This document shows, in pieces, positions 21,045-23,222 of a stretch of 64,000 nucleotides of DNA. Source of the DNA: an uncultured Candidatus Saccharibacteria bacterium (lineage in GTDB: Bacteria; Patescibacteriota; Minisyncoccia; Phycocordibacterales; UBA9973); NCBI GenBank assembly GCA_964554645.1, contig CAZKPK010000001.1, forward strand, positions 3,697 through 67,696, given 5' to 3'. A model generated the notes under the pieces. The model was not told the origin of the DNA. It worked only from the letters and a program-made list of their open reading frames with translations, and ran no database searches. How positions within the stretch are numbered: the first letter of the stretch is position 1; the number at the start of each line of letters is the position of its first letter. The translations under genes and the position numbers were made by a program.

Positions 21045-23222
21045 ATGGAAAAAATAGAAGCTAAAAAGAAAATACAGAAATTGCGAAGCGAAATCGCGCG
21101 ATTGAGAAATGCATATCACATAGAAAATGCGCCGAATGTTACCGATGACGTTTATGATTCTCTAACTCGCGAATTGAAAGAAATTTTACAAAAATATCCG
21201 GAGTTCAAAGACGAAAATTCAGGAGAGAACAGAGTGGCAGGCAAACCACTGGATAAATTTGTCAAGGTAAAACATCAAAATAGAATGCTCTCTTTAAACG
21301 ACGCTTTCTCTTATGAAGAGCTCTATGATTGGGAGAAAAGGGTAAAAAGATTACTTGGCGGTTTAACCGCCAAGTTAGAATATTTTTGTGAAGTAAAGTT
21401 TGACGGTCTGGCGGTGTCATTAATTTATGAAGATGGAAAATTTGCGCAGGGCGCAACTCGCGGAGATGGATTTGTTGGCGAAGATATAACCCAAAATTTG
21501 AAAACTATACATTCGATTCCTCTAGAATTACCCCCTCCCCTTAATAAGGGGAGGGTTGGGGAGGGGTCAATTCCCGCATTTCTAGAAGTTCGCGGCGAAG
21601 CGCTAATATCAAAAAAAACACTTATTTTACTTAACAAAAAAAATGCAAAAGAAGGTAAAGCGCTTTTTGCCAACACTCGAAATGCCGCCGCTGGAAGCCT
21701 TCGTCAGCTCGATCCGGAACTTGCCAAAGAAAGGCATTTAGATTTTGTGGCTTATGATTTAAACTTGGCGGTTAAACCGCCAAGTGGCGGTTTAACCGCC
21801 AAGTGGCCACAAAATCATTCTGCTAAACATGAAATGCTTCGAAGTTTAGGATTCAAAGTTGAAAAATTAGAGGCTAAATGCGAGAACTTAGAAAAAGCGA
21901 TATCTTTTACAAAAAAATTTGAAAAAATAAGACCCAATTTTCCATATGGCACAGATGGCATTGTAATATCCGTGGACGATTTAAAATTACAGGAAGTTTT
22001 GGGTGTTGTCGGCAAAGCTCCGCGCTATATGGTGGCCTTTAAATATCCAGCCGAAAAAGCAACTACTTTAGTAAAAGAAATTTTGATTAATGTCGGGCGC
22101 ACTGGCGTTTTAACACCGCTGGCAATTTTTGAACCAACCTTGGTCGCGGGTTCGCAAGTGTCCAAAGCGACTCTGCATAATATGGATCAAATAGAGCGTT
22201 TGGATTTACGAATCGGAGATACCGTGGTGATCGAAAAAGCGGGCGATGTCATTCCAAAAGTGGTGGAAGTATTGGCTCGGATGCGCACTGGCAAAGAAAA
22301 GAAATTTAAAATGCCAAATAATTGTCCGACTTGTGAGGGGAAGGTGGAAAAGAGAAAGTTGCCAGCGCAACAATCTGTCGCTTACTATTGTTCGAATCCA
22401 AAATGTCCAGCCAAGGATGAAAGATATTTGGAGCATTTTGTGTCCGTGTTTGAAATTTACGAACTTGGCCCAAAAATTTTAAGCCGTTTTAAAGATGAAG
22501 GACTGATTACCGACGCAGCCGATATTTTTACGCTGACGAAGGAGGAAATAGCGCCTTTGGAACGATTTGGGGAAAAGTCCGCAGAAAATATTATTAAAGA
22601 AATAGAAAGCAAGAAGAAAATTACGCTTTCCAAATTTCTTTGGGCGCTGGGGATACTCCATGTGGGGGAAGAGACAGCGCGAGATTTAGCGGATCATTTT
22701 GGAACTTTAGAAAAATTTATATCTTTAATTAGGCAAGAGAAAAGTTTGAATAATTCTCCCGCCTTCGCCCTCGGAGACAAAGGACAGGGGACCCACGGCT
22801 CCTTGAATTCTTCAAACTTTTCTCTTGATATAGAAAACATCGGTCCGGCGGTATCAAAAAGCCTTTATGATTTTTTTGGCGATAAGCGTAATTTAGATTT
22901 TTTAGAAAAGTTGCAAAAAAACGGGGTGGTGGTGGAAAAAATGGAAAAAAGAAAGGCGGGAAAATTTACCGGATTTACTTTCGTTTTAACCGGCACGCTC
23001 TCGCAAATGTCGCGCGAAATTGCCAAGGAAAAAATAATTTCTTTAGGCGGTAAAGTGGCGGGTTCTGTTTCTAAAAATACTTCTTATGTAATAGCTGGCG
23101 TTGAGTCCGGTCATTCCGACTCTGAGAGTCGTCAGACTCGAATGAGCTCCAAACTCAAAATTGCCGAAAGACTAGGGGTAAAAGTAATAAACGAAAAAGA
23201 TTTCTTAAATATGCTACACTAA
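21045..23222 (+). CDS. ligA: NAD-dependent DNA ligase LigA, carrying two in-frame palindromic insertions
   Basis: KxDG adenylation motif ([10 protein letters not shown]), OB fold, Zn finger (CPTCEGK...C), HhH and BRCT domains. Extra segments encoded by the hairpin at 21531-21568 and Family-C repeat at 21764-21808. Confidence 0.95.
21531..21568. repeat. GC-rich hairpin (CCCTCCCCTTA-a-TAAGGGGAGGG plus TTGGGGAGGGG) in-frame inside ligA
   Basis: encodes ..[14 protein letters not shown].. between conserved IPL and EVRGE blocks, about 9 aa more than E. coli LigA at this loop. Confidence 0.7.
21764..21808. repeat. Family-C palindromic repeat (CTTGGCGGTTAAACCGCCAAG plus TGGCGGTTTAACCGCCAAG) in-frame inside ligA
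   Basis: perfect palindromes; encodes [14 protein letters not shown]; same element in rpoC at 53547-53598. Confidence 0.85.

Follow-up and report, generated by a model that had tools for sequence, protein, structure and literature searches.

Repetitive extragenic palindromic sequences (REPs) flank the genes of the REP-associated tyrosine transposases (RAYTs) (Bertels & Rainey 2011, PMC3116915), and they are also found inside open reading frames (ORFs), including that of a DNA ligase, with replication and repair genes notable among these hosts (Di Nocera 2013, PMC3733652). The Rickettsia palindromic elements (RPEs) are summarized in the same work (PMC3733652), and the DUF559 family belongs to the Vsr-like EDxHD group together with the homing endonuclease I-Bth0305I (Taylor 2011, PMC3239194; Taylor 2012, PMC3384342). 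The present work concerns a GC-rich palindromic unit of 36 nt that lies in frame inside ligA, the gene of the NAD-dependent DNA ligase, in a 64-kb stretch of DNA from an uncultured member of the Patescibacteria (contig CAZKPK010000001.1; the whole stretch is hereafter referred to as the window). In our judgment, this unit (21531-21566) is probably, with a probability of roughly 0.68, a solo, non-autonomous copy of a short dispersed selfish repeat residing in a surface loop of LigA. The same unit forms the inverted terminal structure around DUF559 genes in many phyla, among them the gene at 9010-9522 of the window.

The closest described system is that of the REPs, the REP doublets forming hairpins (REPINs) and the RAYTs, which are Y1 HUH enzymes; it is reportedly also treated in work by Nunvar from 2010. 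Like REPs and REPINs, which are palindromes of 20-40 nt with many solo copies, the unit is short (36 nt) and occurs in many solo copies, and, as in the REP/RAYT case, a single small nuclease gene lies between inverted repeat copies and occasional copies are in frame in ORFs. Unlike REPs, neither the window copy nor the family alignments carry a GTAG/CGTC tetranucleotide tag, a mirror-image third G-run belongs to the unit, and a large share of the copies in Candidatus Nomurabacteria is intragenic. The flanked gene also differs: it is a DUF559 gene (PF04480, PD-(D/E)xK-related), not that of an HUH tyrosine transposase (no search was made for RAYT genes genome-wide, nor for RAYT or IS200/IS605 transposases in the window).

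Short palindromic repeats in essential genes are known from Rickettsia and a few REP-bearing bacteria; the RPEs, in frame in essential genes, are said to have been described by Ogata and colleagues in 2000. Like RPEs, the present repeats appear as selfish in-frame palindromes in essential genes of a reduced genome, translated as additions to surface loops. Unlike the 36-nt unit, RPEs are 100-150 bp long, restricted to Rickettsia and without an associated nuclease gene, and searches of Rfam and the literature revealed no relation of the unit to RPE families and no sequence or architectural similarity. A literature search for palindromic in-frame inserts in the Patescibacteria (the candidate phyla radiation, CPR) likewise found no report.

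[quoted passage not shown] The three-arm unit resembles them in that it is found inside Nostocales-type MITEs and on Dolichospermum plasmids, but it is 36 nt long, occurs across phyla and is linked to DUF559. Unlike MITEs (70-300 bp), it has no separate terminal inverted repeats and no consistent duplication, and it is found as cargo inside a cyanobacterial MITE. The GC clusters of yeast and other fungal mitochondria are GC-rich, palindromic and mobile in an AT-rich genome, and are sometimes in frame within a protein gene (var1); unlike the unit, they are organellar, have other sequences, and lack both a mirror arm and a nuclease association. The DUF559 genes share with I-Bth0305I the catalytic superfamily (E-D-x-H-D; FEIDGSSHD in the window) and the character of selfish nuclease genes. 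However, the characterized EDxHD members are housed by group I introns, by inteins or in the gap between the two halves of a split intein, and they home to one cognate site, whereas the DUF559 genes considered here are free-standing, with structured inverted-repeat brackets and many solo repeats. By analogy, the ligA unit may be regarded as REP/RAYT-like, with an RPE-like invasion of genes.

Structure of the unit in ligA

The gene and the parts of the unit are as follows.

21045-23222, + strand: ligA, NAD-dependent DNA ligase; a 725-aa ORF whose orthologs carry the LigA Pfam domains
21531-21566, + strand: the whole three-arm repeat unit, 36 nt, defined by sequence and symmetry
21531-21540, + strand: C-arm CCCCCTCCCC of the unit; the C-run begins at 21531
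21541-21547, + strand: loop TTAATAA between the C-arm and the G-arm
21548-21555, + strand: G-arm GGGGAGGG
21556-21557, + strand: spacer TT between the G-arm and the third arm
21558-21566, + strand: third arm GGGGAGGGG, mirroring the G-arm at 8/8 positions

A first-pass annotation of this DNA had placed a GC-rich hairpin in frame inside ligA, different in sequence from the Family-C palindrome downstream. Both statements were borne out: a perfect 11+1+11 palindrome, CCCTCCCCTTA-A-TAAGGGGAGGG, occupies 21533-21555 within ORF 21045-23222 and is followed by TT and then GGGGAGGGG. That interpretation is right but incomplete: it had been overlooked that the trailing TTGGGGAGGGG is the integral third arm of a conserved 36-nt unit, that the unit belongs to a family dispersed far outside this genome, and that it makes up the ends of DUF559 endonuclease genes. 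The stem of the hairpin is a perfect 11 bp, with a C-rich and a G-rich arm around an AT-rich loop, for which the family definition allows 3-9 nt; the flanks are TTA/CCCCC and GGGG/TCA, and outer pairing reaches weakly into them (GAATTA...TCAATTC).

In the window, whose G+C content is approximately 38%, 23 perfect hairpins (stem >=9, loop <=7) were found, compared with 1-4 in mononucleotide shuffles. The ligA palindrome is unique in the 64 kb at <=3 mismatches, with 0.00 occurrences expected from 100 dinucleotide shuffles. The question of other copies received a divided answer: no second copy of the exact unit sequence exists elsewhere in the window, and many copies exist in relatives and metagenomes, the family profile (nhmmer) scoring the ligA unit itself at E = 2.6e-7. 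In Rfam 15, the best matches for the region 21000-23300 were at chance level (E >= 0.1), far under the gathering score, and at the gathering threshold 15 metagenome loci with the unit yielded only tRNAs and no family for the unit.

The unit encodes residues 163-174 of LigA, after SIPLEL and just before the nucleotidyl-transferase motif III (LEVRGE). Compared with 1B04 and 1TA8, two solved LigA adenylation domains, the insert adds 12 residues (a 12-residue gap in the PDB alignments), and compared with the 19-residue empty spacing of 36 related genomes it adds 10. The extension of about 9 residues claimed earlier relative to E. coli LigA appears to agree with the E. coli sequence. In the AlphaFold2 (AF2) model of LigA, the insert is predicted as a coil with a predicted local distance difference test score (pLDDT) of 69-70 for the block (<50 at 170-173), against 94-95 in the flanks, and a low-confidence coil is predicted at each of the ligA inserts. 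The unit sits in a surface loop of variable length that immediately precedes motif III in the adenylation domain. Its translation lengthens this loop by 10-12 residues rich in Pro and Gly; it would be tolerated because it is in frame and stop-free and because its C- and G-runs code for flexible residues.

Occupancy of the insertion sites in the clade

The stretch from IPLxL to LEVRGE was compared in 120 database orthologs and 80 genome loci (denoted below, like the other loci and contigs, by L numbers), and 68 sites were readable. The closest LigA relatives, 68-76% identical, are all from Ca. Nomurabacteria / Paceibacterota. The site is empty in 38 of the 68, with a conserved xKPFPEY and a GC content of 0.34, and filled in the other 30, which carry 1-28 extra codons of GC-rich, mostly hairpin-forming DNA. 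The GC content of the filled sites is mostly 0.4-0.6; three non-palindromic fillers have 0.23-0.38. The occurrence of both states in this alignment, with roughly half of the orthologs lacking an insert, supports the earlier proposal of a palindromic insertion in a variable loop, and the relatives with similar residues encode them by palindromic GC-rich DNA rather than by non-palindromic DNA. The fillers belong to several unrelated palindrome families of very unequal lengths, with stabilities (dG) from -11 to -54; at the ligA 21531 site they include the following.

the window type (three-arm unit)
a palindrome with a 19-bp stem, TTGGACATCGGATGTC..., in L029 and L040
ATGTCAAAGACCGTCTTTGACAT, in L070
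CCCCTCTCCATTTC...GGAGAGGGG, in L032

Four hot spots of insertion were found in the ligA genes of the clade, at window positions ~21360, 21540, 21777 and 22365, and each is filled in 23-36 of 81 genomes. The ligA frame stays open across the inserts (at least 640 aa in 78 of 81 frames), and therefore the inserts are translated rather than removed; the length of LigA in the clade ranges from 665 to 757 aa. The filler states are patchy on a neighbour-joining LigA tree, in which the window LigA clusters with three empty genomes and with L005 and L069, both diverged and both carrying the same family. L047 has the 23-nt 3' half of the window unit, yet it belongs to a distant clade, beside a genome without a palindrome at the site. 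A single ancient insert inherited vertically was rejected on account of this patchy distribution and the multiple unrelated fillers. In the 'LTRRG' type at this site, found in six relatives, the host I-P-L-S-L codons (ATC CCC CTC TCC TTA) themselves form the C-arm, which suggests microhomology-guided copying.

The first count of two independent palindromic insertions in the window ligA was too low, as five are present: the unit at 21531-21566 and the following four.

21353-21375, + strand: Family-C palindrome ACTTGGCGGTTTAACCGCCAAGT at ligA hot spot 1 (GGLTAK), where relatives carry the three-arm unit
21763-21804, + strand: Family-C double palindrome at ligA hot spot 3
22752-22815, + strand: 64-nt hairpin-forming insert in ligA
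23105-23150, + strand: window-specific palindromic insert in the BRCT region of ligA; AF2 pLDDT <50 across residues 674-703

DNA nearly identical to the 64-nt insert is located at another ligA position in L014 (~10715) and L018 (~10745), and this difference in position between genomes is direct evidence that such elements relocate. The Family-C palindrome ACTTGGCGGTTWAACCGCCAAGT occurs singly or as a palindrome of palindromes. In the window it is in frame twice in ligA and once (53546-53595) in a 1226-aa ORF at 50111-53788, all three sites sharing the reading frame (LAVKPPS(A/G)..GGLTAK), and it is also found at the same ligA sites in L002 and L029.

Mirror symmetry of the third arm

When the window type and its relatives were aligned, a common plan of 35-36 nt was found: a C-arm, an AT-rich loop, a G-arm, a spacer of 2-3 nt and a second G-run. 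The second G-run repeats the G-arm as its mirror image, the mirror match exceeding the direct-repeat match in nearly every copy; a third arm that is a plain direct repeat of the G-arm was rejected, since the mirror match is better in the asymmetric classes. The pairs of G-arm and third arm are as follows.

G-arm GGGGAGGG (window): mirrored third arm GGGAGGGG, spacer tt(g), 8/8 match, A facing A
G-arm GGAGAGGGG: mirrored third arm GGGGTGAGG
G-arm GGAGGGG(G): mirrored third arm (G)GGGGTGG
G-arm GGGGAGG: mirrored third arm GGAGGGG

Three features characterize this arm. One is its regular presence: among the metagenome and viral copies with both flanks, a perfect GGGnGGGG third arm is present in 109 of 125, on exactly one side in 106, and the same motif was found at 4 of 2500 random positions. 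Another is its fixed spacing, with 100 of 112 arms at the same offset. The last feature is the base opposite the A of the G-arm, which is T in 80 copies, A in 30, C in 2 and G in 0. Taken with the C-arm, the two G-runs are compatible in sequence with the triplet sets C:G*G and T:A*T/A across four covarying classes, as is expected of a purine-motif mirror repeat. C:G*G and T:A*T/A are the canonical triplets of the antiparallel purine-motif triple helix, and we infer from the sequences that the three arms would fold as a hairpin plus a purine-motif triplex in single-stranded DNA.

More broadly, CCCCCTCCCCTTAATAAGGGGAGGGTTGGGGAGGGGT may fold as a hairpin only, as a hairpin plus triplex, or as a G-quadruplex. 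The G-rich half of the ligA unit is a canonical G-quadruplex motif on the sense strand (G4-A-G3-TT-G4-A-G4). As a unifying structure the quadruplex was rejected, because it suits the window copy and fails for relatives of the type GGAGAGGGG..GGGGTGAGG, and it is retained only in second place. An interpretation of the arms as Shine-Dalgarno and anti-Shine-Dalgarno sequences (AAGGAGG / CCTCCTT) was also rejected, since some relatives fit it and the window copy AAGGGGAGGG does not; it is retained solely as a possible ribosome-binding role beside DUF559 genes.

Dispersal of the unit

In Nomurabacteria loci totalling 1.45 Mb, the nhmmer profile detected about 40 copies with all three arms. All four ligA hot spots, pheT, pheS and intergenic DNA harbour such copies, whose orientations and reading frames vary; those in pheT and pheS are listed below.

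pheT, two sites: three-arm unit at L016:19169, L038:16604 and L029:11129 (profile match)
pheS: three-arm unit at L039:16144 (profile match)

Unit DNA is read in different frames, giving PPLLYKERGRGEV, SLTRRGVGGEV and TTPSPLLRKEGV, and therefore selection on the peptide is disfavoured.

Beyond this clade, the exact pattern CCCTCCCCTTNNNAAGGGGAGGG was found in 6 viral contigs and in at least 120 metagenome contigs with GC contents of 0.32-0.70. The metagenome copies are mostly intergenic, a long open frame being present in only 21 of 130, chiefly on GC-rich contigs. Further copies were found on Dolichospermum plasmids and in Photobacterium sp. GJ3, where they form arrays with alternating unit orientations (L207, 540-720). 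Tandem arrays with a 34-nt period adjoin a DUF559 gene in L123 (31-121), and arrays were also seen in L101 and L103. On cyanobacteria-like contigs, the unit lies in the middle of a Nostocales-type MITE that is about 125 nt long and has the ends TATAGCAATCCT...AGGATTGCTATA. The 3-nt loop centre of this MITE differs in almost every copy (AAT, ACC, AGT, GAT, GCT, ACT), the arms are invariant and the remainder of the MITE is nearly so; the MITE hairpin loop is a mutational or recombinational hot spot. Loop-variable copies were recorded in L092, L120, L124, L127, L164, L169, L188, L111, L114 and L147.

Association with DUF559 genes

When the ORFs within 4 kb of the metagenome unit copies were clustered, one recurrent family emerged, DUF559 (Pfam), at a median distance of 82 nt. 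Inverted units bracket the DUF559 gene in L106, L110, L123, L192, L195 and L132, with the third arm facing the gene. In L128 (64% GC) the arrangement is atypical; the unit there lies about 80 nt upstream of the DUF559 gene, and the loop triplet is its sole difference from the ligA unit. When homologs were picked solely for the similarity of their proteins, 4 of 4 were bracketed (Parcubacteria L223, Aliivibrio finisterrensis L229, L231 and L235), and bracketed genes were likewise found in Nomurabacteria (the window, L032, L213, L214 and L222), where the inner hairpins differ. The Nomurabacteria genes occupy three contexts (pilM/pilO-like genes; pilB/response regulator; rpoD/dsbA), and their products share 74-91% identity, compared with 58-76% for the LigA proteins of the same genomes. 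These identities and the varied contexts fit a horizontal movement of the gene. The link between the repeat and DUF559 is well supported as an association. In the literature on DUF559 and on Patescibacteria palindromes, no repeats flanking DUF559 and no in-frame palindromes in CPR proteins were found to be reported.

The DUF559 gene of the window, its end structures and their solo copies are as follows.

9010-9522, + strand: DUF559 (Vsr-like, EDxHD) endonuclease gene (tblastn; Pfam PF04480; PDB 3HRL)
9028-9112, + strand: left end structure, two tandem copies of TCCACCCCG-(variable hairpin)-CACCCCTCAAGAGGGGAAT
9510-9595, + strand: right end structure ATTCCCCTCTTGAGGGGTA-(CTCCGACTTCAGTCGGAG)-TGGGGTGGA, then a second unit GGGGTG-(ACCCGATGACCATCGGGT)-CGGGGTGGA
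8391-8436, + strand: solo left-end copy STPSFDYKVHPSRGE, in frame in ORF 8295-8945
16013-16058, + strand: solo left-end copy, identical to 8391-8436 over 46 nt
31039-31076, + strand: solo left-end-type copy IHPVASATPQEGN, in frame in pheT, ORF 29427-31364
59555-59595, + strand: solo right-end-type copy, inner hairpin identical to that of the L213 right end

The gene at 9010-9522 matches PF04480 with E = 6.4e-22 (77.9 bits against a cut-off of 20.6), and the nearest solved structure for its product is 3HRL (E = 4e-9). The conserved core begins at ~9133, and the predicted catalytic E-D-x-H-D motif, FEIDGSSHD, is intact. The protein is 100% identical to the database protein P0121. For comparison, the window LigA has no exact match in the protein collection in which this DUF559 protein from the same contig is present at 100%; the best LigA hit there has 75% identity. 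The left end corresponds to the three-arm unit reversed, with an extra hairpin in the spacer, and the right end is inverted relative to the left; the mirror rule is kept in both (GAGGGG and GGGGTG). The left end structure is read through by the ORF, which ends with a TGA stop codon (9520-9522) situated in the right-end hairpin loop.

Gene callers lengthen the N-terminus of DUF559 proteins by 25-45 residues (9010-9132; proteins P0121-P0240), because no stop codon interrupts the left end structure. A conserved WNPKSLYPYWEIPKNK directly follows the repeat in the Nomurabacteria subfamily. Judging from these sequences, the left-end repeat of the Nomurabacteria genes may really be translated.

In all, the DUF559 end structure has four solo copies in the window, of which two lie in frame within genes, and CCCCTCWWGAGGGG occurs 7 times in the window against 0.01 expected. 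Over their 46 nt, the copies at 8391-8436 and 16013-16058 also match the left end of the L213 DUF559 unit without any difference. The ORF at 29427-31364 was identified as pheT by its similarity to the PheT ORFs of L016 and L038 (Pfam-confirmed). The ligA copy is not an end of a DUF559 element: it is solo, the nearest DUF559 gene lying 12 kb upstream, and it is filed as a solo derivative.

Other palindromes and gene neighbourhood in the window

Besides the solo copy at 31039-31076, pheT (ORF 29427-31364) contains three more in-frame palindromes of different families, at 29540-29562, 30343-30373 and 30622-30642. The palindrome at 29540 occupies the same pheT site as the three-arm unit in L016 and L038, and therefore pheT has hot spots too. 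A further family, TCCCATAGGTCRGACCTATGGGA, and its relative CCACAGGTCAGACCTGTGG are located at 34063-34085, 34370-34392, 34768-34800 and 14690-14732; several of these copies stand at ORF starts or inside ORFs (HRSDLWD), and relatives are present in L022 and L039.

Around the DUF559 gene, at ~7200-19600, a type IV pilus cluster is located (pilM, pilO-like, pilB, pilT, pilC, pilin and prepilin peptidase, from the L209 gene table), with a nucleotidyltransferase/HepT-like toxin-antitoxin pair at ~17080-17910. The assembly GCA_016186455.1 (JACPLP010000008.1, L209) lacks the 43 nt at 18485-18527 of the window (L209 ~19476) and is otherwise 99.995% identical, with one single-nucleotide polymorphism at 18466. 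By this deletion, the prepilin-peptidase gene, intact in the window (17944-18780), is split into two ORFs in JACPLP010000008.1. GTCGG repeats flank the 43-nt segment, and 50 nt away there is an in-frame palindrome (18406-18435).

Origin and spread of the unit

If the ligA unit is a solo selfish repeat, as we consider, the solo units may relate to DUF559 genes as REPs relate to RAYT transposase genes. They would most likely be propagated by, or together with, the DUF559 nuclease plus host repair or replication, and the copying probably proceeds by microhomology, not by cut-and-paste. That DUF559 itself mobilizes the units is possible, although we place this somewhat below an even chance. A little more tentative is the wider proposal that the unit and DUF559 constitute an unrecognized class of cross-phylum mobile elements, analogous to REP/RAYT but with another nuclease fold, which would have triplex-capped hairpin ends (with space for one more hairpin at the turn) and whose solo copies would be mobilized in trans and, in Patescibacteria, where intergenic space is scarce, would settle in the surface loops of essential proteins such as LigA, PheT and PheS.

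Several points weigh against these interpretations. As to the unit, this subtype has only one copy in the 64-kb window, and the folding energy of the ligA copy is not significant against dinucleotide shuffles (z = -1.9 for DNA, -1.1 for RNA). The energy is unexceptional because any C-run plus G-run pairs well; as base composition accounts for the pairing, it was dropped as evidence, and the significance is therefore carried by the exact symmetry and the recurrence elsewhere. The neighbour-joining LigA tree is without support values. Target-site duplications showed no consistent pattern: TATTTA stands on either side of the insert in L047, L011 and L017 have a weak ATTTA/TTTAAA, and in the others it is weak or absent. 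A part of the family may already be described as cyanobacterial SDRs. As to DUF559, the association is correlative, with seven bracketed examples coming from loci selected for the unit, and the unbiased sample is small (4 homologs, together with 5 Nomurabacteria genes that are close relatives of one another). The ends of the resident DUF559 gene are a variant with the extra spacer hairpin, unlike the simple ligA unit. Any binding or cutting of the unit by DUF559 is hypothetical, and a lone PD-(D/E)xK-type nuclease is, to our knowledge, not a known transposase; the DUF559 gene could equally be a homing endonuclease targeting pre-existing units.

This last point leads to the alternative that survives best, although we consider it unlikely: the unit is selfish, and DUF559 is not its mobilizer. 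The gene would then have entered units or doublets by homing-type insertion, or the units would serve the gene, the G-rich arm as a ribosome-binding site and the hairpin as a terminator, and the spread of the units would be due to an unidentified transposase, to template switching at the fork or to gene conversion by microhomology. In several cases the third arm or G-arm stands 8-15 nt before the start codon, suited to a Shine-Dalgarno role (GGAGGGGTTGTAAAGATG in L235, GAGGTGGTTATTTTTTATG in L231), and the characterized EDxHD relatives are homing endonucleases, not transposases. The inconsistent target-site duplication, the host I-P-L-S-L codons serving as the C-arm in the 'LTRRG' type, which fit microhomology copying, and the units inside cyanobacterial MITEs with terminal inverted repeats of their own point in the same direction. 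Expression signals, however, do not need an inverted bracket with the third arm facing the gene on both sides, and the same bracket recurs in Patescibacteria, a vibrio and cyanobacteria-like contigs. Moreover, the solo left and right ends of one DUF559 variant in the window resemble non-autonomous derivatives.

An origin in place is already disfavoured, and we regard it as very improbable. The hairpin would have arisen by local template switching or hairpin extension on C-rich codons, with nothing imported, in agreement with the conserved host codons that form the C-arm in six relatives, with the single copy in the window and with the strong pairing that composition alone produces. Such copying cannot make a mirror-image third arm, and the same 33/36 nt, including the spacer and the third arm, recur in unrelated contigs with GC contents of 0.32-0.70; the same unit is also present at other ligA sites, in pheT, in pheS and in intergenic DNA. 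We give no better prospects to a host function of the nucleic acid, whereby an mRNA hairpin, an RNA G-quadruplex or a DNA triplex would slow translation before motif III or set the stability of the ligA mRNA. The 11-bp stem is perfect although it is coding, the site is filled in approximately 40% of the genomes, and the sense strand carries the canonical quadruplex motif. Against this function, the site lacks an insert in over half of the orthologs, the palindromes that fill it elsewhere are unrelated and very different in length and stability (dG -11 to -54), and the unit is found in either orientation, both within other genes and intergenically. Least probable of all is an adaptive Pro/Gly loop with a role in LigA: the insert is translated and similar peptides (PPPAKGEVGRGS etc.) recur in several orthologs, but the frame in which this DNA family is read varies from site to site (PPLLYKERGRGEV, SLTRRGVGGEV, TTPSPLLRKEGV), the loop is predicted as a low-confidence coil, and it is missing from most orthologs and from the inspected structures 1B04 and 1TA8.

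Significance

Palindromic inserts appear to be a major source of protein length variation in this clade, as illustrated by the four hot spots of ligA. They inflate and fragment gene calls, and CPR proteins aligned for phylogenomics need to have them masked. As a structural signature, a third arm that mirrors the G-arm and covaries in keeping with base triplets is unusual. It has long been asked by what means very small dispersed repeats move, and the consistent bracketing of DUF559 genes by the three-arm unit across phyla gives a testable candidate machinery, and the link suggests a possible role for one of the largest uncharacterized bacterial protein families. If the unit and DUF559 do constitute a class of mobile elements, this would provide a function for the DUF559 family and a mechanism for some of the very small mobile repeats.

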